Of a stretch of 64,000 nucleotides of DNA, positions 48,611-58,168 are shown one piece after another. Each line of letters opens with the position of its first letter. The stretch's first letter is position 1. The stretch is from Candidatus Omnitrophota bacterium (lineage in GTDB: Bacteria; Omnitrophota; Gorgyraeia; Gygaellales; JAQTUX01), in contig JAQTUX010000001.1 of the NCBI GenBank assembly GCA_028707125.1, forward strand, positions 822,528 through 886,527, written 5' to 3'. The notes under the pieces were generated by a model. It did no database searches. It worked only from the letters and a program-made list of their open reading frames with translations, and was not told the origin of the DNA. The position numbers and the translations under genes were made by a program.

Positions 48611-49454
48611 GCCGCTGCGGCGCCACAGCAGTTTTCGCATAGGCGGCAAAGCGCGCTTCTGGTATGAGCCGAAGGATATAGAGGGCTTGAGAGAGGCGCT
48701 TAGGCGGATCAAACAACATTCCATAAAAGCTGCCATAATCGGCGCCGGCAGCAATATCTTATTTGATGATAGTGGATTTAAAGGGGCCTGCCTGCGGCTT
48801 TGCTCGCCGGGATTCAGCGCGATCAGTAAGGCGGGAAGCAGTTCTATTGTCTGCGGCGCTGGCGCGATGCTCAAGGATATCGTGAGTTTTGCCGGGAGCC
48901 ATAATATGGGCGGGGCAGAGTTCCTGGCAGGCATACCCGGGACCCTGGGCGGCGCTATTATCATGAACGCGGGAGTAGAGAGCAGGAACATTTCCGATCT
49001 GGTCTCTGAAGTCGATCTTATGGATTATTCAGGCCGCGTCAGGGCGGTCAAGAAAGAAAACATCGCTTTCGCTTACCGGCGCTCTCGCCTGGGCAGGTAT
49101 ATAGTGCTTGGGGCTAAATTAAGGCTTTTCGCGCGCGAAGGGGAGTTGATCGGCAGGGATGTCAGGCGCATCATTGACAGGAGGCTCAAGACGCAGGACT
49201 ACAGCCATCCCAGCGCCGGGTGCGTATTCAAGAACCCTCCTTCTGATTCAGCCGGCCGGCTCATAGATATCTGCGGCCTTAAAGGAGAAAGGGTCGGCGG
49301 GGCAGAGGTTTCCAGCCGCCACGCCAATTTTATAATAAACAGGGGCAGGGCCAGATCGCGGGACGTTATACGGCTGATGAATATAATAAAAGGCAGGGTA
49401 AAGGACGAGTTCGGGATATGCTTAGAGCCGGAAATAAAGATATTGGGAAATTAA
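48567..49454 (+). CDS. murB: UDP-N-acetylenolpyruvoylglucosamine reductase
   Basis: FAD-binding PCMH domain (RIGGKA), MurB C-terminal domain. Start trimmed to ATG at 48567 (MNWWKG), a 44-nt overlap with murC. Confidence 0.85.
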   Translation: MNWWKGLEGRLRLDEPLRRHSSFRIGGKARFWYEPKDIEGLREALRRIKQHSIKAAIIGAGSNILFDDSGFKGACLRLCSPGFSAISKAGSSSIVCGAGAMLKDIVSFAGSHNMGGAEFLAGIPGTLGGAIIMNAGVESRNISDLVSEVDLMDYSGRVRAVKKENIAFAYRRSRLGRYIVLGAKLRLFAREGELIGRDVRRIIDRRLKTQDYSHPSAGCVFKNPPSDSAGRLIDICGLKGERVGGAEVSSRHANFIINRGRARSRDVIRLMNIIKGRVKDEFGICLEPEIKILGN

Positions 49455-50374
49455 AGAAAGCTAATGTAGGCATTTTGATGGGAGGGGTCTCTTCTGAGAG
49501 AGAGATATCTCTTAAGTCCGGCGCAGCCGTGGCTGCCTGCCTGCGCGAGGCGGGATTCAACATAAAAGAGATAGATATTGCTACGGATAGGCCGGCTGAT
49601 ATAAAGCGGCTGCTGCGGGAGTCAGGGATCGGCCTCGCCTTTATCGCGCTGCACGGCCGGCTGGGAGAAGATGGGAAGATCCAGAAGATACTCGGCGATC
49701 TGGGCATTGTTTATACCGGCTCTTCTCCGCGCGCCAGCGATCTTGCCCTGGATAAGGTATCTTCAAGGGTGCTGTTTGAAAAAGGCGGTTTGCATACGCC
49801 GCGGTATAGCATTTTGAACAAAAAACGTTCGTTGGATGATCTGCCTGATATTTCCTTTCCGGTTGTGGTAAAGCCGCCGCGCGAGGGCTCCAGCATAGGC
49901 CTGTCAATAGTTGATTCGCCTGGCGGCCTGAAACAGGCGTTGTCCCGCGCGTTTGAATATGACAGCAGGGCGATCGTGGAGGAATATATACGGGGGCGCG
50001 AAGTGACCGTGGGTATCCTGGCGGATAATGCCCTGCCTGTCATAGAGATCTTCCCCAAAAGAAGGTTCTTTGATTATAGCGCGAAATATAAGAAGGGGTT
50101 CACCGAATATATAGTGCCGGCAAAATTAAAGAAGAGCGAATCCTCTGCCTGTAAGGACGCGGCCTTGAAGGCGCACCGGCTGCTGGGCTGCGACAGTTTT
50201 TCCCGGGTGGACATCATTCTTTCCCAGGGCGGCAGGCCGTATGTGCTGGAGGTTAACACCATACCGGGCTTTACCGCGTCCAGCCTGCTGCCGAAGGCGG
50301 CGGCTTCTATTGGGTTGACTTTTTCTGATTTATGTATAGAATTGTTAAGGTTGGCTTATGAAAAAGAAAAATAA
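49418..50374 (+). CDS. ddl: D-alanine--D-alanine ligase
   Basis: VGILMGGVSSEREISLKSG N-terminus, ATP-grasp motifs. Confidence 0.9.
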   Translation: MLRAGNKDIGKLKKANVGILMGGVSSEREISLKSGAAVAACLREAGFNIKEIDIATDRPADIKRLLRESGIGLAFIALHGRLGEDGKIQKILGDLGIVYTGSSPRASDLALDKVSSRVLFEKGGLHTPRYSILNKKRSLDDLPDISFPVVVKPPREGSSIGLSIVDSPGGLKQALSRAFEYDSRAIVEEYIRGREVTVGILADNALPVIEIFPKRRFFDYSAKYKKGFTEYIVPAKLKKSESSACKDAALKAHRLLGCDSFSRVDIILSQGGRPYVLEVNTIPGFTASSLLPKAAASIGLTFSDLCIELLRLAYEKEK

Positions 50375-51092
50375 AAAGACATTATCGCTTATAATAATCC
50401 TGCTCATTGCCCTGGGTTCAGCCGCTGCCCTCGCGTGGTACGCGGCGCGGGCCGTAAGGTCCTCGGCATTCTTCAGGATAAAGGGCGTAGCCATCGCTTC
50501 CAACGCGAAGATAGATGTCTCGCATCTTATAGGCAGGAATATATTTGACGTTGACCTGAGAAGGGAGATCCGGTTTCTCAGGAACAACTATCCCCGGCTC
50601 AGGATATTGAGCGTGGTCAAGCGTTTTCCCGACAGGATGATCATAAATTCCCGGACGCGCGCGGCAATAGCGCAGATAAAGTCCTACCGCTACCTGTTCA
50701 TAGACGAAGAGGCGGTCATATTGCCGGAAGAATCCGATTATGGCAGCAGCACGCTTCCTGTCATCGTAGGCCTGGAGTCAAAGATAAGCAGGCCCAGGTA
50801 CGGCTGGTCATACGCCGATCTAAAGGAGATCAAGATCGCGTTTGAGCTTATGAAAGAACTGAAAGGTAATCCCGATACCGCCGGTTTAGATATCGCGAAG
50901 ATAGACGTGTCCAGCCCCGGCAGCCTTTCTTTTTCTGTCAGGCCTTCCGGCTTGCCGATCAAGGTGGGGGATGAGGATATAAAAAAGCGCGTAAGATCGC
51001 TGGGGGCTGTATTGCGCAAGCTGGACGCGAAATTGGATAACTTGAGCTATATAGACCTCAGGTTTTCTGAGCCGGTAGTCAAACCAAAATAA
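50358..51092 (+). CDS. ftsQ: Cell division protein FtsQ/DivIB
   Basis: Single N-terminal TM then POTRA-like domain; canonical ddl-ftsQ-ftsA position. Confidence 0.75.
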   Translation: MKKKNKKTLSLIIILLIALGSAAALAWYAARAVRSSAFFRIKGVAIASNAKIDVSHLIGRNIFDVDLRREIRFLRNNYPRLRILSVVKRFPDRMIINSRTRAAIAQIKSYRYLFIDEEAVILPEESDYGSSTLPVIVGLESKISRPRYGWSYADLKEIKIAFELMKELKGNPDTAGLDIAKIDVSSPGSLSFSVRPSGLPIKVGDEDIKKRVRSLGAVLRKLDAKLDNLSYIDLRFSEPVVKPK

Positions 51093-51095
51093 ATC

Positions 51096-52319
51096 ATGGC
51101 AGTTAAGAACAGTATGGTCTGCGGACTGGATATCGGCACGAGCAAAATAGCGGGCTGCCTTTGCCTGGGCGCCAGGGGGCAGCAGAAGCCCGCGTTGTTT
51201 TTTTCTTCCGCGGAGGCGCGCGGCATAAAGAAAGGCGTGGTAAACGACGCTGCCTTGTTTTGCGAATCGGTGGATAAGGTTTTAGGCGGCCTGCAGAAGG
51301 ACTCAGGCGCGCGGTTCAGGGAAGTGCATGTAAGCCTCCAGGGGGATTTTTCCTGCAGGCATTCCAACGCCGCTGTTACGCTCTCTGAACGAGGGAACAG
51401 GCAGATAACCAGCCAGGACATCAGGAAAATAAACGAACAGGCAAGGATGCTTGGGGTGCGCCTGGATGAATCGCTTCTGTATTCTTTTCCGGTTTACTAC
51501 GTTATAGATGACGATGTGAGGAGCGCCAAGCCCGCGGGGCTTTACGCGCGCAAATTTGAGGTGGACCTTTATCTGGTCACCGCCCCGGCGAGCTTAACGG
51601 ATAACATCGCCCTGGCGATAAATAACGCCGGCTATAATGTGGCCGGCTTTTATTTGTCTTCGGCGGCATTGGGGCATTCCGCGTTAACCGCTGAGGAGCA
51701 GGATAAGGGGGTGCTGTTGATAGATATGGGCGCTGAGATCACCGAGGCGGCTGTATTCAAAGACGGCGGCGTCAGGCACCTTGAGATATTCGGCTTCGGC
51801 GCGGATGATTTTACGCGCGCGTTAAAGGATGAGCTTAAGATAGGCATTGAGCTGGCAGAGGAGATCAAGGAATCATACGGCACTCTGTTTGTGGAGCAGC
51901 TGGACGATAAACAGGAGATCATGATAAACCGGCATGGTTCGTATGTGCCGGTTAAGCGCAGCGAGATTTGCTGCGCGCTGGTAAAGAAGTCAGGGCCCAT
52001 ACTAAAGGCAATGGAGAACAGGTTAAGGTATATCATCAACAAGGAGGAGTTGCCTTGCGGTATTGTGGCGGCAGGGGGCGGCTCTTACCTTGAAGGGCTG
52101 CTTGAGGCGATGGAGAAGGTCTTCCATGTTTCCGTAAAGATCGCAGCCATACGCCAGGATCTGACGCAAAAGAAGGAGCTGAAATACGCCACCGCGCTTG
52201 GCATCATTAAAATGGTGCTTGAGTCGCGGGAGCAGAAAGAATCATCTCTACCCACCCCCGAAGGCCTCTTCCGCAGGCTATCCGAGAAGCTCAAGGAAGT
52301 GTATCAGGAATATTTCTAG
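51096..52319 (+). CDS. ftsA: Cell division protein FtsA
   Basis: Actin-like ATPase motifs (GLDIGTSKI), FtsA domain layout. Confidence 0.9.
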   Translation: MAVKNSMVCGLDIGTSKIAGCLCLGARGQQKPALFFSSAEARGIKKGVVNDAALFCESVDKVLGGLQKDSGARFREVHVSLQGDFSCRHSNAAVTLSERGNRQITSQDIRKINEQARMLGVRLDESLLYSFPVYYVIDDDVRSAKPAGLYARKFEVDLYLVTAPASLTDNIALAINNAGYNVAGFYLSSAALGHSALTAEEQDKGVLLIDMGAEITEAAVFKDGGVRHLEIFGFGADDFTRALKDELKIGIELAEEIKESYGTLFVEQLDDKQEIMINRHGSYVPVKRSEICCALVKKSGPILKAMENRLRYIINKEELPCGIVAAGGGSYLEGLLEAMEKVFHVSVKIAAIRQDLTQKKELKYATALGIIKMVLESREQKESSLPTPEGLFRRLSEKLKEVYQEYF

Positions 52320-52347
52320 TCTTTACCATCTTCCAAGGCGTTTCCCT

Positions 52348-52367
52348 CTACACACTTACGTGTGTAG
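52348..52367. repeat. REP-type hairpin (CTACACAC-TTAC-GTGTGTAG) overlapping tnpA stop codon
   Basis: Perfect 8-bp stem; the TAA stop of tnpA lies in the loop. Confidence 0.6.
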
Positions 52368-52727
52368 AATCCTTTGGCTGCGGATGTATTCTTGCACGCT
52401 TTCTAATTCTACTATATCCACTTCTCTAAAACCATATCGCCTTGCCCAGAAATGCTTAGGATTGTAATTCCCCACACGTAAGTGTGGGGTGTTCTCCAAT
52501 AGTTTCTTACCAGAAACAGATTTTAGTGTTCTTACCATATCAGCCAATTCTTTCCTGTCTTTTGCTTCCAGCAACATATGCACGTGGTTCTTATTGGATT
52601 CCATTTCCAAAATATTATAGTTCTTTCGTTGTGCTACCTCTAGAAAAGAGTTCTTTGCTATCTCTTCAGCTTTCGCTTCCAGTGTTTCTCTTCTGCGCTT
52701 TGTCACGAACCAGATATGGTAATACAT
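52356..52727 (-). CDS. tnpA: IS200/IS605-family Y1 (HUH) transposase TnpA / REP-associated tyrosine transposase-like
   Basis: HUH motif HVHMLL, C-terminal catalytic Tyr in SVQEYIRSQ, ~123 aa; REP hairpins at gene end and inside it. Confidence 0.8.
   Translation of the reverse strand: MYYHIWFVTKRRRETLEAKAEEIAKNSFLEVAQRKNYNILEMESNKNHVHMLLEAKDRKELADMVRTLKSVSGKKLLENTPHLRVGNYNPKHFWARRYGFREVDIVELESVQEYIRSQRILHT
52470..52489. repeat. REP-type hairpin in inverted orientation (CCCCACAC-GTAA-GTGTGGGG), inside tnpA coding sequence
   Basis: Perfect 8-bp stem; encodes TPHLRVG of TnpA. Confidence 0.55.
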
Positions 52728-52806
52728 GGTTTTTGCGGAAATTACCCCCCTCTACTATATATGACGCAAAAATCAGCGTTTTACTTGCAAGAAAGTTTAA
52801 ATATTC

Positions 52807-53042
52807 TATGAACCCGCTGGCTTCCTCGCTCATATCGGTTTTGCCCCGAATGGTATTCAAAGAGGGCCGGCAAAGGTCTCTCGCAGCTCGGTGCTTGCGG
52901 AACTCGCCCTTTTTGCTCCAGCAAAAAGGGCTCAGACAGTCCTCGCACTTTGGGCCTTATAGGCCACAAAGTTCCCTCGCTGCTCGAGCTGCTTTGCCTA
53001 AAACCTCAAATTCGCTCGTAAGCCAGCGGGTTCATTTACGAG
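52807..53042. repeat. MITE-like element with ~24-bp terminal inverted repeats (ATGAACCCGCTGGCTTcCtCGCTC) and internal 11-bp perfect hairpin
   Basis: TIRs read directly at ~52808-52833 and ~53016-53040; internal GCCCTTTTTGC-TCCA-GCAAAAAGGGC. Confidence 0.45.
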
Positions 53043-53177
53043 ATGCTCGCTCGTAGGAATATCAAAAATAACTAAGCAATCAGAACTTATTACGGTATAA
53101 TAGATAGCAGCAAGGAGAACCGTCCCCGATCCAATATTTATATTACAAGAAAGCATAATGTCGACTAATTATTTTCT

Positions 53178-53205
53178 TGACATATAATATTAAATGTGTT
53201 AATCT
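53178..53205 (+). promoter_or_regulatory. Sigma70-like promoter of island operon (TTGACA-16-TAATCT) with AAAGGAGG RBS downstream
   Basis: Read directly in AT-rich spacer upstream of 53232. Confidence 0.45.
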
Positions 53206-53231
53206 GTTAACATCTATGAAAGGAGGCAAGC

Positions 53232-53432
53232 ATGCAAAAACAAAAAAATGACACTGAAAGAGATATGGTAAAACATCTGAAGAAATTAGTTATGCTTAGC
53301 GAAAATTCCTTGATTATAAGTCTATCTCAACAAGATGTCCCTCATCAGACGATACGAAAAGTTGCCGGAGTTGATATGTCTCGTGTCACCTCGTTGCTTC
53401 GCGGGGTAAAGTCTGCAAAAAAGACTGATTAG
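53232..53432 (+). CDS. Small putative HTH protein, paralog 1 of 4 (66 aa)
   Basis: Hydrophobic helix then helix-turn-helix-like HQTIRKVAGVDMSRVTSLLRG; aligns with the other three small ORFs. Confidence 0.5.
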   Translation: MQKQKNDTERDMVKHLKKLVMLSENSLIISLSQQDVPHQTIRKVAGVDMSRVTSLLRGVKSAKKTD

Positions 53433-53448
53433 CGAAAGGAGTACTACT

Positions 53449-53613
53449 ATGCAAAACACTGACAAAATCATTGAGGAATTAGTGGCTATAAAGAAGCTGC
53501 TTATGCTTCAATTAATGCGCGATGACGTGGACGCCTCCGTAATTGGGAAGGTACTAGAACTAACCCCTACGCGAATACGACAAATAATACCAGTAAAAGA
53601 CGTACGCAAATAA
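53449..53613 (+). CDS. Small putative HTH protein, paralog 2 of 4 (54 aa; below ORF-track cutoff)
   Basis: MQNTDKIIEELVAIKKLLMLQLMRDDVDASVIGKVLELTPTRIRQIIPVKDVRK; AGGAG RBS 8 nt upstream; same architecture as neighbours. Confidence 0.5.
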   Translation: MQNTDKIIEELVAIKKLLMLQLMRDDVDASVIGKVLELTPTRIRQIIPVKDVRK

Positions 53614-53628
53614 TAAGGAGCCTTCATA

Positions 53629-53856
53629 ATGAAACGAACTAGGAAAATTGGCGCAGAAGACGAAGTTTCAGTAAAATTGGGCATCTTAATCCGGTTGTTT
53701 ATTGAATTTCTGATAACATCGGAAAATAAGAACTTTAATACTGGCAACGTTGCAAGAATCTTAAAATCACTCGATATTACACCAACCGAAATTGCAAGAA
53801 TGTTAGGTAAGAAATCTGTAACTGATGTTGCACCATTTCTTTATCGTAAGAAGTAA
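53629..53856 (+). CDS. Small putative HTH protein, paralog 3 of 4 (75 aa)
   Basis: LGILIRLFIEFLI helix then NVARILKSLDITPTEIARMLG HTH-like segment. Confidence 0.5.
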   Translation: MKRTRKIGAEDEVSVKLGILIRLFIEFLITSENKNFNTGNVARILKSLDITPTEIARMLGKKSVTDVAPFLYRKK

Positions 53857-53869
53857 GGGGTAGATACCA

Positions 53870-54769
53870 ATGTCTACTTATATTCAGCAAGTAACAGACG
53901 TTAGATCAAATTCAAGTGACCAAATACACTTCGCAGCAAAATTGATTAGGCGTTCCAGACAAAAAAAGGCCGTGTTTAAGGCAATCTACCGTGGTAAAAA
54001 ACAGATTAAATCCATTTCTGAAATAGAGAAAGTCACCGATTTAAATAATATCCAAATATTAAAAGCTGGTGGGACCTTAGCTGGGAATGGTATTGTCAAA
54101 AAAGTAAAAAAGGGATACCAAAAAGATACATTTTATGCACAACATTATCGCAAAATATTGTCTCTCGCCTCAAATAGTAAAAAGTTGAAACAATTCCCAA
54201 CAAAAACACAACCCTATCTCAATTCTAATATAGGCACAACTAGTAGAATATCGCTTAAAAAACCTGCGCAAAAAGTAAGATTTATTACAATTGATGATAT
54301 CTATTCATTTAGAAAAATTAAAGATAATAAATCAAAAAATAATATAGATGGAACATTTCTTTCCAAACTTCCTGAGAATGAAATCAAAAGTGGAATCGCA
54401 AAGATCATTAGGGAAAGCGGAATATTTAAAGACTGGGCAGGAGAAAAAAATGATCTATTTACAACAAAAGTAAGCATTGGATCAAAAAGGGTGGCTGCTG
54501 TTTTTGCGTTTAAAGGAAAAGGCACAAAAGGCATTTTAACATTAGATAAAATGGGAAAAAGAGCAGACCAAATTCAGCGACTATTTGACAGCCAATCTTC
54601 TCAACTATTTATAGTGGTTTATAAAGGACAAATAGGCCAAGTTATTCTTGAGCAGATGTATGCTTACGCTATTGCGAAGGCTCTTTACGGTAAAGAGATC
54701 TATTACGGTATTATTGATGGAGATGACTTGATGCGGCTAATTTCATCTTATAAGAACTGTTTTGAATAG
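53870..54769 (+). CDS. Hypothetical K-rich 299-aa protein, no recognisable domain
   Basis: AT-rich codon usage; N-terminal possible winged-helix-like segment, low-complexity K/N/S linker, C-terminal alpha/beta region (possible nuclease-like fold, unproven). Confidence 0.5.
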   Translation: MSTYIQQVTDVRSNSSDQIHFAAKLIRRSRQKKAVFKAIYRGKKQIKSISEIEKVTDLNNIQILKAGGTLAGNGIVKKVKKGYQKDTFYAQHYRKILSLASNSKKLKQFPTKTQPYLNSNIGTTSRISLKKPAQKVRFITIDDIYSFRKIKDNKSKNNIDGTFLSKLPENEIKSGIAKIIRESGIFKDWAGEKNDLFTTKVSIGSKRVAAVFAFKGKGTKGILTLDKMGKRADQIQRLFDSQSSQLFIVVYKGQIGQVILEQMYAYAIAKALYGKEIYYGIIDGDDLMRLISSYKNCFE

Positions 54770-54780
54770 GAGGCGACATA

Positions 54781-54990
54781 ATGAAGAAAAAGCGCAGTAT
54801 AACTAAAAAAAGTCTGTCTGATTCCGATCGTTTAGATATAATCATATCTTTACTAAGTCACTTACTAACTGTTCAGTTATATAAATCAGGCGCGACAATG
54901 GATGATATATGTAGGCATTTACATATTGCAAAAACATCCGTGGTCGATATGTTAAAAGGTTTCAAGCGAAAGCTCGGTAATAATTCGTAA
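54781..54990 (+). CDS. Small putative HTH protein, paralog 4 of 4 (69 aa)
   Basis: IIISLLSHLLTVQL helix then TMDDICRHLHIAKTSVVDMLKGF. Confidence 0.5.
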   Translation: MKKKRSITKKSLSDSDRLDIIISLLSHLLTVQLYKSGATMDDICRHLHIAKTSVVDMLKGFKRKLGNNS

Positions 54991-55080
54991 ACAAGACGGT
55001 TACAATTAATCTTGGACCAATAACATAATGGGGACGGTTCTCATTAGTTTTAGTTGCTGAATCATAACAGACCTAGTAGC

Positions 55081-55180
55081 CGCTTTTCGTAATTAGCTAA
55101 TTTCCCGTAACTTACAGAACAAATATTTACCCCACACTTACGTGTGGGGAATGGCAATCCCTGATTGTCTCAGCGGGTGG
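55081..55180 (+). repeat. Repeat unit U1: CGCTTTTCGTAATTAGCTAATT head (12-bp perfect palindrome AATTAGCTAATT) + REP hairpin (55130-55149) + CTGATTGTCTCAGCGGGTG tail
   Basis: Read directly; second copy U2 ~175 bp downstream. Confidence 0.55.
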
Positions 55181-55255
55181 CTTTGGACGGGGCGCCCCGC
55201 CCCGCGCGGAGTTCTCCCGTCCGTTATGGTAATGAATTCTATGAAGAATGGCAGA

Positions 55256-55400
55256 CGCTTTTCGTAATTAGCTAATTCCCCCATAACTCTATATAAGGAT
55301 ATCACAAGATGTGATATCCTTTATTGTTTCTAATGCTATTGGAGGGTACCCCACACTTACGTGTGGGGAATGACAATTCTGCACTGATTGTCTCAGCGGG
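55256..55400 (+). repeat. Repeat unit U2: same head, extra perfect hairpin AAGGATATCAC-AAGAT-GTGATATCCTT (55295-55321), REP hairpin (55349-55368), tail merging into 230-bp repeat copy 1
   Basis: Read directly. Confidence 0.55.
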
Positions 55401-55613
55401 TGACTGCCGAGCGGGCACAGAATTTCGGGAGGGGTGACGTCGTTTTGAGGGCTCCCGCCGCGCGGACCCGCCAAGACATCTGGCGGGGAGCACGGCGGGA
55501 AACAAAACGACGGCAGGACCCCTCCCTCAGAGTTACAATCTAGATACTTCGGCGGTGATTTATTGACAAGGCCGCCTCAGTATCAACACCAGGACGCATA
55601 CGAAGGTGTTGAC
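55384..55613 (+). repeat. ~230-bp GC-rich structured direct repeat, copy 1 (upstream of MNT/HEPN pair)
   Basis: Near-identical to 56405-56634; nested inverted repeats GGGAGGGGTGACGTCGTTTTG / CAAAACGACGGCAGGACCCCTCCC and inner CCCGCCA-AGACATC-TGGCGGG. Confidence 0.7.
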
Positions 55614-55638
55614 ATTTATATAAGTTATATTGTATAAT
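55609..55638 (+). promoter_or_regulatory. Consensus sigma70-like promoter (TTGACA-18-TATAAT) for MNT/HEPN operon
   Basis: Perfect hexamers read directly at the end of repeat copy 1. Confidence 0.55.
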
Positions 55639-55679
55639 TAAGTTGCGAATACTTAGCGGGATAAAAAAATTAGGCAAAT

Positions 55680-55967
55680 ATGACGACAAAGATTAGTAGA
55701 ATAAAACAAATAATACTGCCGATCTTGCAACAATACGGCGCTAAAAAAGCAGCGCTATTTGGCTCATATGTCAGAGACCAGATGAAAAAGGATAGTGATA
55801 TTGATATATTGGTAGAAATTGAAAAGGATATCAGCCTGCTTGATTTTATAGGTCTTAAACAAGAGATTGAAGAGGCGTTAGGAAGGAAGATAGATTTGGT
55901 GGAATATGACAGCATTAAACCTCTTCTCAGAAAGCGTATTTTAAAAGAGCAAGTGGTAATTCTATGA
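55680..55967 (+). CDS. Minimal nucleotidyltransferase (MntA-like antitoxin)
   Basis: GSxxRG...DSDIDILV pol-beta NTase motif, 95 aa. Confidence 0.8.
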   Translation: MTTKISRIKQIILPILQQYGAKKAALFGSYVRDQMKKDSDIDILVEIEKDISLLDFIGLKQEIEEALGRKIDLVEYDSIKPLLRKRILKEQVVIL

Positions 55968-56308
55968 AAAGAGACGCTAGAGTATATATCGAAGATATCA
56001 TAGAGAGCATTACAAAGATAGAAGAGTATACGAAGGATCTTAAGTCCGAAGACGATTTCTATAAGGATACTCAGATTCAAGATGCTGTCTTAAGGCGGCT
56101 GGAAATCATCGGTGAGGCAGTTAAGAATATCCCCGAAGAGATCAAGAGGAAATATCCGCAGATACCATGGAAGAAGATTGCCGGCATGAGAGATATTCTT
56201 ACTCATCAATATTTTGTAGTAAACCTGAAACAAACATTTAAGGCAGTCAAAGAAGACATCCTCGATCTAAAAAAGAACATTGCGCAGATAAACAAAGAAT
56301 TGCCATAG
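55964..56308 (+). CDS. HEPN-domain toxin (DUF86/HepT-like)
   Basis: Rx4HxY motif (RDILTHQY), 114 aa, 4-nt overlap with upstream NTase gene. Confidence 0.8.
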   Translation: MKRDARVYIEDIIESITKIEEYTKDLKSEDDFYKDTQIQDAVLRRLEIIGEAVKNIPEEIKRKYPQIPWKKIAGMRDILTHQYFVVNLKQTFKAVKEDILDLKKNIAQINKELP

Positions 56309-56352
56309 TTGTTTTGAGGTCGCAAAGTGCGACCTCAAAGATTGTTTCGTTT

Positions 56353-56384
56353 ACGCCTCCAAATTAACTTGGAGGCGTTTTTAT
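56353..56384 (+). terminator. Intrinsic terminator after HEPN gene (GCCTCC-AAATTAAC-TTGGAGGC + T-run), preceded by a second hairpin at 56314-56338
   Basis: Read directly. Confidence 0.65.
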
Positions 56385-56404
56385 TGGACGCGGATGGATT
56401 GGTT

Positions 56405-56634
56405 CTGATTGTCTCAGCGGGTGACGCCGAGCGGGCACAGAATTTCGGGAGGGGTGACGTCGTTTTGAGGGCTCCCGCCGCGCGGACCCGCCAAGACATC
56501 TGGCGGGGAGCACGGCGGGAAACAAAACGACGGCAGGACCCCTCCCCTCAGAGTTACAATCTAGATACTTCGGCGGTGATTTATTGACAAGGCCGCCTCA
56601 GTATCAACACCGAGCAGCATACGAAGGTGTTGAC
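56405..56634 (+). repeat. ~230-bp GC-rich structured direct repeat, copy 2 (upstream of yggS)
   Basis: Near-identical to 55384-55613 (few substitutions/indels). Confidence 0.7.
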
Positions 56635-56664
56635 TTCCTCGATAGATTATGATAATTTAAGGCG

Positions 56665-57312
56665 ATGATTAGGGAGAATATTGCCCGCATAAGAGAGGAA
56701 ATATCGGCTGTTTGCGGGAAAATCGGCCGTGACCCTAAGGAAATCAGGATTATTGCCGTATCAAAAGGCAGGTCAATAGAGGAAATTGAGGAAGTTCTGG
56801 CCTGCGGCATCACTGATATCGGCGAAAATAAGGTCCAGGAAGCCAAGCGCAAGATTAAAGGTTTAAGCGCCAAGTTGCACATGGTTGGACACCTGCAGTC
56901 AAACAAGTCCAAGGGCGCTGTTGAGCTCTTTGATCTGATACATTCTGTGGACAGCTTTGAACTCGCTGAAGCCATTGATAAACAGGCGGCAAAACTCGGC
57001 AAAGTCCAGGATATCCTGATCGAGGTCAACACTTCCGGCGAAAAGAGCAAATTCGGCATAAGGCCGGACGACCTTATCCTGCTTATCGGCCGGATAAGAG
57101 AGCTTAAACACATTCGCGTCAAGGGGCTGATGACAATGGCGCCTGTGGCGGATAACCCCGAGGAAATAAGGCCGTATTTCAGGAAGTTAAGGGAGTTAAG
57201 AGACCGGGAACATCTGGCAGAACTATCAATGGGAATGAGCGATGACTATAAGGTCGCCATAGAAGAAGGCGCCACAATAGTGCGCCTGGGCAGGGCGATA
57301 TTTGAAAAGTAG
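56665..57312 (+). CDS. yggS: PLP homeostasis protein YggS/PROSC family
   Basis: Alanine-racemase-N-like TIM barrel with conserved Lys in IAVSKGRS...HMVGHLQSNK. Confidence 0.85.
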   Translation: MIRENIARIREEISAVCGKIGRDPKEIRIIAVSKGRSIEEIEEVLACGITDIGENKVQEAKRKIKGLSAKLHMVGHLQSNKSKGAVELFDLIHSVDSFELAEAIDKQAAKLGKVQDILIEVNTSGEKSKFGIRPDDLILLIGRIRELKHIRVKGLMTMAPVADNPEEIRPYFRKLRELRDREHLAELSMGMSDDYKVAIEEGATIVRLGRAIFEK

Positions 57313-57322
57313 CGAGTAGAGA

Positions 57323-58168
57323 GTGGCAAGTAGCGAGATGAAGAAGATCATAGGTATAATCGGTTTTGGCAATATGGGTTCGGCGATCGCCGGCAGGGCA
57401 AAGGCCGCGTATCAAGTTTGCGTATTTGATAAAGACAATGCCAAACTCAAGGGCCTGGCAGGCATAGATGCCGCGGGCAGCGTTTCCGAACTTATTAATA
57501 AGTCAGAAATAATAATACTGGCTGTAAAACCGCAGGACTTTGAGCCGCTGCTTAATGAAATTGGCAGCGGCATAAAAGATAAATTGGCGGTCTCTATCGC
57601 CGCTGGAGTTGCCACGACTTACGTTGAGAAACGCCTGCGCGGAGCGCGGGTTGCGCGGGTTATGCCGAATATGCCGGCAAAGATCGGCAAAGGCGTTTCC
57701 TGCGTTACGGCAGGCAGGTCGGCAACGCCGGATGATATCAAGGCAACAAAAGATATATTCGCTAATTTAGGGCAGGTTATGGCATTGAAGGAAGAGATGA
57801 TGGACGCGGCAACCGCGGTTTCCGGCAGCGGCCCGGGTTTTTATTTCAACGAAGTTGAAAGCCGCCCTGATGAGCATAAACAAAATTGCTATGAGTTCCA
57901 GGAGGATTTTATCTCGCGGCTGAGCAAGGCGGCTGAGGCAGCGGGTTTTGACGAAAAAGACGCCCATTTTTTAGCGCATCATACTGTCACGGGCAGTGAG
58001 TTATTGCTTAAGGCCGGCAGCCTGAATGCCGCGCAGTTGAGGGATCAAGTCGCTTCAAAGGGCGGCACTACCGAAGCAGGGTTAAAGGTTTTGCAGGCAG
58101 GAGGGGATCTGGTTGAGGCGGTTAAGGCCGCGGCAGAACGCGCGGCAGAACTTTCCAGGAAGGAGTGA
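57323..58168 (+). CDS. proC: Pyrroline-5-carboxylate reductase
   Basis: IGFGNMGSAIAGR Rossmann motif, ProC dimerisation domain. Confidence 0.85.
   Translation: MASSEMKKIIGIIGFGNMGSAIAGRAKAAYQVCVFDKDNAKLKGLAGIDAAGSVSELINKSEIIILAVKPQDFEPLLNEIGSGIKDKLAVSIAAGVATTYVEKRLRGARVARVMPNMPAKIGKGVSCVTAGRSATPDDIKATKDIFANLGQVMALKEEMMDAATAVSGSGPGFYFNEVESRPDEHKQNCYEFQEDFISRLSKAAEAAGFDEKDAHFLAHHTVTGSELLLKAGSLNAAQLRDQVASKGGTTEAGLKVLQAGGDLVEAVKAAAERAAELSRKE

Follow-up and report, generated by a model that had tools for sequence, protein, structure and literature searches.

Within the 64,000-nucleotide stretch of DNA analysed here—the window—five ORFs on the + strand, encoding proteins of 66, 54, 75, 299 and 69 aa, are packed between positions 53232 and 54990, with spacers of 16, 15, 13 and 11 nt. 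AGGAGG, AAGGAG or AAGGGG can be seen by inspection ahead of every one of the five starts, and ORF coordinates and sequence alike bear out the sequence-only reading of this DNA on that point: five same-strand ORFs, 11–16 nt apart, each with its own ribosome-binding site. The promoter that it proposed fares less well. A promoter-like site, TCGACT-16-TATAAT, does precede the first gene (53161–53188, + strand), matching the consensus at 10 of 12 positions; matches of this quality are no commoner here than in shuffled sequence. The TTGACA originally picked out (53177–53182) overlaps that site and abuts TATAAT, with no spacer in between. An 8-bp palindrome, TGTTAACA, can be made out by inspection between the promoter-like site and the ribosome-binding site of small gene 1. 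The five genes are conspicuously AT-rich, as had been claimed: GC drops to 0.372 and 0.330 in the 53–55 kb interval, against about 0.50–0.54 elsewhere in the window; over the five genes it is 33–37%, against about 51% around them, and the cassette as a whole lies 16 points under its flanks.

Neighbours that the sequence-only reading assigned to this island are confirmed: an IS200-like tnpA (Y1_Tnp match, 1e-27), a toxin–antitoxin (TA) pair (nucleotidyltransferase, 1.9e-17, plus HepT, 1.6e-28), and repeated elements. The cassette sits between the tnpA and inverted fragments of that same gene, and Rfam yields zero matches in 52–57 kb. A 16-nt inverted repeat, 15/16 complementary, brackets the five genes, its left arm at 53112–53127 and its right arm at 55030–55045, 40 nt past the last stop codon; its core, GAGAACCGTCCCC, occurs at just these two positions in the window. 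The repeat may mark a boundary of the cassette here, a local one, we think, because terminal inverted repeats turn out to be no feature of the family.

The largest gene (53870–54769, + strand) encodes the 299-aa protein, the predicted nuclease effector. It had been called domain-less, and that description has to be given up. In the AF2 model (pLDDT 90.9) an N-terminal winged helix-turn-helix domain (about residues 15–110; 53912–54199, + strand) is followed by a C-terminal domain (residues 125–299; 54242–54766, + strand) that displays the alpha-beta-beta-beta-alpha-beta core by which the PD-(D/E)XK, or restriction-endonuclease, fold superfamily is defined. The C-domain's best structural match is FokI, at 13% sequence identity; further structural neighbours include MspJI and AspBHI, both Type IV enzymes, and an Mrr-like nuclease from LlaBIII. 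Foldseek with the C-domain against the PDB gives no significant match, the profile of the large family finds nothing among PDB sequences, and Pfam offers nothing for the full-length protein at E ≤ 1 or for its C-domain at E ≤ 10. A P-loop was considered for the stretch FKGKGTKG and dismissed: its spacing does not fit GxxxxGK[ST].

Conservation across 240 family members is lopsided. The winged helix has almost no invariant residues; the C-domain has a constellation of conserved ones—E169, D188, E192, D195, K215, D233 and Q234—of which E169, E192 and D195 are present in 240/240 and K215 in 239/240. D195 stands at the start of one strand of the model and K215 in the next, 20 residues on; in FokI, 19 residues separate D450 from K469. 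The canonical (D/E)xK is incomplete: its middle acidic position, 213, is occupied by Ala or Gly. If catalysis occurs, E169, E192 or D233 would have to take over, as relocated acidic residues do in enzymes of the Cfr10I type.

The change at 213 invites the thought that the protein might be no nuclease at all. All five proteins would then simply bind DNA, in a module for xenogeneic regulation or of the nucleoid-associated kind, and the C-domain would be a catalytically dead fold that binds DNA or ligand. HTH-type domains on all five proteins, basic tails on the small ones, and the lack of a significant nuclease match with Foldseek would all sit comfortably with this. Invariance of E169, E192, D195, K215 and Q234 over 240 diverse members, however, is typical of an active site rather than of a scaffold. 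Genes for HEPN RNases, moreover, have been recruited by the cassette repeatedly, and in one variant locus the large gene is apparently replaced by two separate proteins, one a winged helix and the other with a D...ExK-like motif. We consider a module without nuclease very unlikely, and if the nuclease reading holds, the large family would be a new one of restriction-endonuclease fold.

The four remaining genes encode 'mini-HTH' proteins. Small gene 1 (66 aa; 53232–53432, + strand) is nearest to subfamily D, its best matches being the D-type proteins of loci L035, L067, L077 and L032; small gene 2 (54 aa; 53449–53613, + strand) belongs to subfamily A; and small gene 3 (75 aa; 53629–53856, + strand) belongs to subfamily K, and matches the gene immediately 5' of the large gene in locus L059 with a phmmer E of 7.9e-19. 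Against a family HMM from which the window was left out, these three score E-values of 1.5e-9, 6.1e-8 and 8.8e-6, respectively. Small gene 5 (69 aa; 54781–54990, + strand; HMM E 4.6e-12) is of subfamily C, and lies 3' of the nuclease gene here. The four were first described as paralogs that align with one another. Pairwise BLAST among them gives no match at E < 1e-3, but an HMM built from other loci only matches exactly these four among the 384 ORFs of the window, at 20.5–40.7 bits; with 500 shuffles per protein, the top score is 8.5–11.3 bits. Because one profile recognizes all four and pairwise BLAST relates none of them, their paralogy, judged from sequence comparison, is real but ancient.

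That they form one small DNA-binding family, as had been suspected, also stands, and the type of HTH can be narrowed. Among 150 small proteins, Pfam matches at E ≤ 0.01 are to Sigma70_r4_2 (44), HTH_23 (35) and GerE (13); HTH_3 is matched by just 14 of the 150. By these matches, and by the motif that the proteins have in common, L..aGls..EIA..LG.s..tV, the HTH is of the Sigma70_r4_2/HTH_23/GerE-like type. From sigma-70 region 4, LuxR-GerE and HTH_23 domains elsewhere they differ in several ways. Sigma factors these are not, being stand-alone proteins of 54–90 aa with a single region-4-like HTH and no region 2; they carry neither a receiver nor a ligand domain; and their genes stand in tandem, as diverged paralogs linked to a single nuclease gene.

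Within a locus, the paralogs differ more from each other than from their counterparts elsewhere: the best BLAST match of a small protein was always in another locus (same locus, 0/273). Subfamily order recurs from locus to locus, E B A C (large) and G B A (large), for example, and in 33 of the 65 tightly coupled loci the gene immediately 5' of the large one is of type A, the commonest type in that place. By this evidence the paralogs are differentiated, ancient subfamilies in partly conserved order. At least 14 subfamilies make up this stand-alone HTH family; they are kept across phyla and are not hypervariable. A profile search with subfamily C alone found 455 proteins and, looked at in the reverse direction, the large gene was present in 6 of 7 sampled contexts of C-type genes. 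Tandem fusions of the small HTHs do not exist, the long ORFs being start-codon artefacts. Among the motifs of the cassette proteins are a conserved N-terminal one, V.D.RSN..DQI, and PTK..P, in a linker.

In the family at large, the linkage is just as strict. The large gene adjoins 1–8 small paralogs in 83 of 86 loci, most often three or four (range 0–8), and a single one in just 7/86; the resulting cassettes are about 1.1–3.3 kb in size. Counted over the 12-kb loci, 246 small genes precede the large gene in the same orientation, 20 follow it, 25 are divergent and only 3 lie elsewhere. In 65 of 78 loci, no more than 60 nt separate the end of a small gene from the large gene's start; the median gap is 5 nt. 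The large protein has 71 homologs, and 1383 clusters at 50% identity; in GTDB, taken at one genome per species, 298 matches are scattered through numerous phyla of both Bacteria and Archaea, and CPR and DPANN organisms, whose genomes are tiny, are among the carriers. GC is lower in the cassette than on either side of it in 63 of 69 loci (median −8.3 GC points), and cassettes occupy unrelated chromosomal sites, without an integrase, mostly among housekeeping rather than defence genes. The cassette is conserved and horizontally spread: low GC, the AT bias of the homologous loci, and scatter over phyla among housekeeping genes together speak for horizontal acquisition, as the sequence-only reading had supposed from composition and surroundings.

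Could the cassette be mobile-element machinery, then, with the large protein a transposase or homing nuclease of restriction fold and the small HTHs its DNA-binding accessory factors? Unrelated sites among housekeeping genes, with no integrase, are what one might expect of it, as are, in the window, the bracketing 16-nt repeat and the tnpA sequences on either side. In the family, however, flanking inverted repeats average 8.8 nt at best, against 8.3 nt in shuffles, and a tRNA gene is nearby only rarely, in about 4 of 60 loci. No genome was seen with several copies; the sole apparent duplicate (L049/L050, both from a single MAG) arises where the ends of contigs overlap. IMG/VR, with 2.9 million viral contigs, has no relative of the cassette, and 72,556 plasmids have no full-length copy, only distant relatives of the C-domain. 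Mobile-element machinery is therefore the least probable of the explanations we weigh, and a long shot. The 50,697 phage records hold one distant C-domain relative only. A distant relative of the C-domain has as neighbours ORFs which, by their motifs, we take to be SIR2-like and HerA-like, and this we count towards a conflict role. A known prophage regulatory cassette of the cro/cI/xis kind, an assignment that the sequence-only reading had said would refute it, this is not, by these viral and phage searches and by PHROGs, where no match is better than E 0.15.

Other catalogues are equally silent. All five proteins, run against Pfam, NCBIfam, PADLOC and PHROGs, give only sub-threshold, mutually inconsistent matches; in PADLOC-DB 2.0.0 the large protein has none, and the small ones have only matches at chance level. 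Nor did we find a description of the cassette in the literature—a weak negative, as most subscription journals were outside the scope of that search. The cassette is apparently undescribed, and the initial failure to match it to any described system extends to Pfam, NCBIfam, PADLOC, PHROGs, the PDB and the literature searched.

One tie to known conflict systems is an optional gene. The cassette contains or adjoins HEPN genes in 15 loci, and these match Hypoth_Ymh and HEPN_Swt1. Among 91 neighbours, 9 match PDC-M34B, a PADLOC candidate (best E 3.6e-40), and the cassette HEPN genes also match PD-Lambda-3_B, weakly. The large and small proteins match none of the PADLOC models of PDC-M34 or PD-Lambda-3, and so the overlap with these concerns the accessory gene only. 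The Ymh HEPN family has been described in operons with R-M systems (PMC3710099).

Among characterized enzymes, the large protein matches in plan the Type IV enzyme Mrr of E. coli (EcoKMrr). Mrr, too, has an N-terminal winged helix and a C-terminal PD-(D/E)XK domain, is about 300 aa long, and is solitary, with no cognate methyltransferase. The large protein might thus be a divergent, modification-dependent Type IV enzyme, and the HTH genes upstream plain transcriptional controllers, like the C proteins of R-M systems; MspJI, AspBHI and the LlaBIII nuclease are, as noted, among its structural neighbours, and the cassette has no methyltransferase. There is no detectable sequence relation, however: hhalign assigns a probability of just 0.1% when the family profile is compared with E. 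coli Mrr, Pfam Mrr_N and Mrr_cat do not match, and the motif of the large family has no middle acidic or Gln residue. Nor do the small genes behave as C genes should. HTH_3 is far outnumbered by Sigma70_r4_2 (14 versus 44 of 150), no methyltransferase accompanies them, and upstream of the arrays there is no conserved operator, no excess of palindromes over shuffles, and no common 8-mer. To our knowledge, no description of Mrr gives it dedicated small partners, of which the large family here almost always has 1–8, and no controller genes have been described for Type IV enzymes; three to six anciently diverged controllers per gene would be unprecedented. We think this account decidedly unlikely.

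FokI suggests a different role for the small proteins. Its cleavage module is non-specific and is steered by separate recognition domains, and one can imagine each mini-HTH binding a DNA motif of its own, and recruiting or licensing a shared FokI/Mrr-like cleavage protein, so that a modular, restriction-like system would owe its specificity to the array. The structural match to FokI would fit, as would ancient, differentiated subfamilies combined in variable number, from 1 to 8; the want of a conserved operator weakly favours targets outside the cassette. FokI, though, is a single chain and has a methyltransferase as its partner, whereas the cassette divides DNA binding between a winged helix within the large protein and separate small genes, and has no methyltransferase; without one, self-cleavage at copies of the motifs in the host is hard to explain. 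The large protein already bears its own winged helix; no small HTH is fused to it in any of 218 family members; and the subfamilies are conserved across phyla, unlike specificity subunits, which usually diversify. Combinatorial targeting strikes us as improbable to about the same degree as a Type IV enzyme with controllers.

The explanation that we prefer, at a probability of about 0.5, is that these are the genes of a self-contained conflict operon that moves horizontally—a defence or addiction module—in which a nuclease effector is joined by mini-HTH partners. The 299-aa protein would be the effector, held on DNA by its winged helix, and its PD-(D/E)XK-fold domain would cut nucleic acid, most likely DNA. 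The co-transcribed mini-HTH proteins would be dedicated partners of this predicted nuclease. Since they are differentiated, ancient subfamilies in partly fixed order, they probably act jointly, not redundantly, and their likeliest job is to restrain the nuclease, whether as repressors of the operon or by attaching to the nuclease itself or to the DNA that it cuts. The nuclease would be active, then, only on foreign DNA, or once infection or loss of the cassette upsets the balance. In the roughly 10–20% of loci where a HEPN RNase gene joins the operon, its product would be a second effector. The restriction fold, the recurrent HEPN genes and the absence of a described match lead us to keep, as the best reading, the regulatory or defence-type module that the sequence alone had first suggested.

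Several observations pull the other way. The canonical acidic residue at position 213 is missing; the operon in the window has no HEPN gene; methyltransferases are only 2 of 91 immediate neighbours, leaving no partner for self-protection; most neighbours are housekeeping genes; and neither a small HTH fused to the large protein nor a conserved upstream operator has been found. Type II TA systems are instructive here. As in these, small DNA-binding genes stand just 5' of a predicted nuclease gene, a median of 5 nt away, in an autonomous, AT-rich unit that has spread horizontally. Type II TA systems have two genes, though, with one small antitoxin to one toxin, and here three to six different genes lie upstream; the toxin would be a two-domain protein of 299 aa with a DNA-binding domain of its own; and TA family models do not match the cassette proteins.

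If the conflict-operon reading is right, a compact cassette spread through Bacteria and Archaea has been missing from the domain and defence catalogues that we searched, and with it a new restriction-fold family, a new stand-alone HTH family, and an arrangement with several tiny DNA-binders per nuclease. Why a nuclease should need three to six distinct HTH partners—as locks, as sensors, or as targeting subunits—is a question whose answer could reveal a new mode of controlling or directing such an enzyme. If we are mistaken, there remain two sizeable, uncharacterized protein families in strict genomic linkage.

A bolder version, which we hold to be unlikely yet somewhat less so than any of the rivals above, is that the cassette belongs to a new immune or conflict class, in which a fixed set of diverged mini-HTHs forms a sensor or recognition assembly that gates a winged-helix/restriction-fold nuclease, the effector being exchangeable. 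We know of no characterized defence system that uses an array of DNA-binding paralogs to feed one effector. The notion of an exchangeable effector draws on the loci with an added HEPN RNase, and on the one variant locus that has a different putative nuclease.

The cassette is a run of five genes on the forward strand: small genes 1 to 3 (66, 54 and 75 aa; 53232-53432, 53449-53613 and 53629-53856), the large gene (299 aa; 53870-54769) and small gene 5 (69 aa; 54781-54990), in the subfamily order D-like, A, K, [large], C. Gaps of 16, 15, 13 and 11 nt separate the ORFs in turn, an AGGAGG, AAGGAG or AAGGGG box can be read ahead of all five start codons, and a promoter-like site, TCGACT-16-TATAAT, lies on the same strand at 53161-53188. 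GC content is 0.37 and 0.33 within 53-55 kb versus about 0.50-0.54 for the remaining window; that GC is lower here had been remarked in the sequence-only reading. We found no description of the cassette in Pfam, PADLOC, PHROGs, NCBIfam, the PDB or the searchable literature. Its best-supported interpretation is a mobile conflict operon, in which a predicted restriction-fold nuclease, the effector, would be tethered through its winged helix, and the mini-HTH paralogs would be dedicated partners, most likely in control of the nuclease; the nuclease activity itself, the function of the partners and the biological role of the operon are what we infer here. The cassette's components have known folds, and the pairing of HTH proteins with a nuclease effector is itself familiar. 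We see a modest chance that the array of paralogs represents a new principle.

The earlier claim that the four small proteins are paralogs of one family is borne out. Pairwise BLAST gives no matches among them, identity in a four-way alignment is only 19-33%, and their kinship is visible only by way of relatives in other genomes. Each significantly matches, by phmmer, small ORFs that adjoin homologs of the 299-aa gene elsewhere, and different window proteins match the same foreign ORFs. A family profile built from non-window members alone and searched on the 384 window ORFs of at least 40 aa picks exactly these four (E 4.6e-12 to 8.8e-6; 20.5-40.7 bits, versus a best score of 8.5-11.3 bits among 500 shuffles of each), and so the paralogy stands, by profile rather than by pairwise match. 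Among 150 family members, HTH matches at E<=0.01 are to Sigma70_r4_2 (44), HTH_23 (35) and GerE (13). Together with the profile kinship, these matches indicate that the small proteins, which have basic tails, are paralogous, stand-alone helix-turn-helix proteins of the sigma-region-4/LuxR/HTH_23 type.

A hypothetical protein of a Candidatus Omnitrophica MAG has the same sequence as the large protein (100% identity). Pfam, PADLOC, PHROGs and NCBIfam offer the large protein no significant match, and a search of PDB sequences with its family profile came back empty. A word-indexed search returned 71 homologs of about 290-300 aa, and an exhaustive one 1383 clusters of relatives at 50% identity, 569 of them at E<=1e-30; judged by these searches, the protein belongs to a well-defined family. 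Modelled separately (pLDDT 91.6), its C-terminal 175 residues match restriction-endonuclease-fold nucleases: AF1548 (7.9), VC1899 (7.4), LlaBIII (7.3), MspJI and AspBHI (both 7.0) and, lower, BspD6I, NucS, Avs4, HamA, Can2, Hna, HindIII and BamHI. Of the 240 distinct, full-length sequences compared, all carry E169, E192 and D195, 239 carry K215, as many carry Q234, and 238 carry D188; the winged helix has nearly no invariant residue. In the predicted model D195 opens one strand and K215 lies in the next, the usual position of these residues in the D...(D/E)xK motif. The motif's central position is Ala or Gly, not acidic, and an active site, if present, would need E169, E192 or D233 as a stand-in; enzymes of the Cfr10I type have their acidic residues relocated. 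With both that substitution and the invariant residues in view, we find it rather improbable that the cassette is a non-catalytic DNA-binding module. E. coli Mrr has its architecture in common with the large protein but is not detectably of the same family, the comparison by hhalign being non-significant, and a divergent Mrr-like type IV enzyme, with the small proteins as plain transcriptional controllers, seems an unlikely identity. Conserved V.D.RSN..DQI at the N-terminus (residues 8-20, outside the folded domains) and PTK..P (residues 111-115, in a low-confidence linker of pLDDT 57-78) are candidate partner-binding or processing sites.

The anatomy, linkage and evolution of the cassette can be followed from genome to genome. 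Scanning GTDB, one genome per species, gave 298 matches in Bacteria—among them Planctomycetota, Acidobacteriota, Nitrospirota, Pseudomonadota, Actinomycetota, Chloroflexota, Bacteroidota and CPR groups—and in Archaea, including Thaumarchaeota, Bathyarchaeia, Thermoplasmata and DPANN archaea. Eighty-six loci of 12 kb each, searched with the iterated small-protein profile, yielded 297 small ORFs, 294 of which could be placed relative to the large gene: 246 same-strand upstream, 20 downstream, 25 divergent and only 3 elsewhere. At least one small gene is present in 83 of the 86 loci (mode 3-4), and in 65 of 78 it ends within 60 nt of the large-gene start (median gap 5 nt). Conversely, searching with a profile of subfamily C, to which small gene 5 of the window belongs, brought up 455 proteins, and six of seven sampled contexts contain the large gene. 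The two kinds of gene are linked in both directions, and the cassette as a whole is conserved. At locus L096 (4403-5304) the large gene is broken into overlapping ORFs of 74 and 226 aa that each match the family profile; either this copy is frameshifted or its sequence contains an error.

Clustering sorts the small proteins into 14 subfamilies, and none of 273 has its best match within its own locus. The orders E B A C [large], G B A [large] and E D C [large] recur across phyla, as does the divergent arrangement j' c' d' e' <-> A [large]. The paralogs are ancient, and their order is partly conserved. Most hhalign probabilities between subfamilies exceed 90%; HTH profiles commonly cross-match, and so we count these links as supportive only. 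No fusions of small domains with one another or with the large protein were found, and that the small proteins are targeting subunits, set beside the control of the nuclease that we favor, strikes us as unlikely.

In 63 of 69 loci the cassette has a higher AT content than its flanks (median -8.3 GC points; -16 in the window), and in none is it more than 3 points GC-richer. Searches of the cassette loci for inverted repeats at the flanks, for neighboring tRNA genes and for conserved operators showed none of them to be a family feature; that the cassette is itself mobile-element machinery is very doubtful. Most immediate neighbors are housekeeping genes. The sole recurrent accessory is a HEPN gene of Ymh or Swt1-like type (15 loci), matching the PADLOC candidate PDC-M34B in 9 of 91 neighbors or, weakly, PD-Lambda-3_B. 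Ymh HEPN genes have been described in operons with R-M systems (PMC3710099). One locus (L001, 1-6885) is a clear defense island: a Swt1-like HEPN gene sits between the small-gene array and the large gene, the cassette lies just 3' of an MmeI-type R-M gene, and a Ymh protein matches PD-Lambda-3_B at 8e-83. Close by is a gene for bAvd, a diversity-generating retroelement accessory.

In the window, the cassette is part of an island of 4.3 kb, with ddl-ftsQ-ftsA on one side and a yggS-like gene and proC on the other (49418-58168 overall). Because the FtsZ signature GGGTG[ST]G occurs in no frame of the whole 64-kb window, ftsZ is missing from its usual position after ftsA. The sequence-only reading had noticed in the island an IS200-like tnpA (it matches Y1_Tnp, 1e-27), a toxin-antitoxin module and a MITE-like element. 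The module is a nucleotidyltransferase/HepT pair (95 and 114 aa; 55609-56308; 4-nt overlap) with its own perfect promoter match, TTGACA-18-TATAAT. HepT belongs to the HEPN RNases, and it is genes of this class that accompany the cassette elsewhere as accessories; in the window the pair looks like an independent module. The MITE-like element is a repeat unit of ~200 nt, in tandem and dispersed copies on either side of the pair (55078-55543 and 56327-56587), two of which have spurious ORFs with the peptide AERAQNFGRGDVVLRAPAARTRQDIWRGARRETKRRQDP in common. A 32-45-nt piece of tnpA coding sequence, encoding TPHLRVGN and including the hairpin CCCCACAC..GTGTGGGG, is present at 52458-52502, 55128-55160 and 55336-55380; the hairpin has no further occurrence in the window. 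Both extra pieces are inverted and lie across the cassette from the intact tnpA, so that the five genes stand between tnpA and two of its fragments. A 16-nt inverted repeat (53112-53127 and 55030-55045; 15/16 complementary) brackets exactly the five genes, and its 13-nt core occurs in just two places in 64 kb, the two arms. Almost all other loci lack a comparable repeat (L035 has one of 24 nt), and we treat the window's as local.

The seventh subfamily C context (L092, 3992-6540) may show a swapped effector: behind four small HTH genes, the place of the large gene is taken by two others, one for a 149-aa winged-helix protein weakly like the large-protein N-terminus (hhalign E 4.6e-4, probability 33%), the other for a 257-aa protein that has a D..ExK-like GFVD...MEIK motif. 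Farther along are genes for a PhdYeFM antitoxin and a 299-aa Y1_Tnp protein. No relative was found among 2.9 million viral contigs, and plasmid and phage records hold solely distant relatives of the large protein's C-terminal domain. One, a 366-aa protein in a record labelled Bacteriophage sp. (MT837022.1; L090, 2196-6403), has only that domain in common, with the stretch PKDWGGEQHDL...LKG...LGKNGDQLQRM; directly downstream are putative SIR2-like (YKLHGS) and HerA-like (GSTGGGKS) ORFs, read from motifs. Similar C-domain-only relatives are found on Rhodococcus and Gordonia plasmids.
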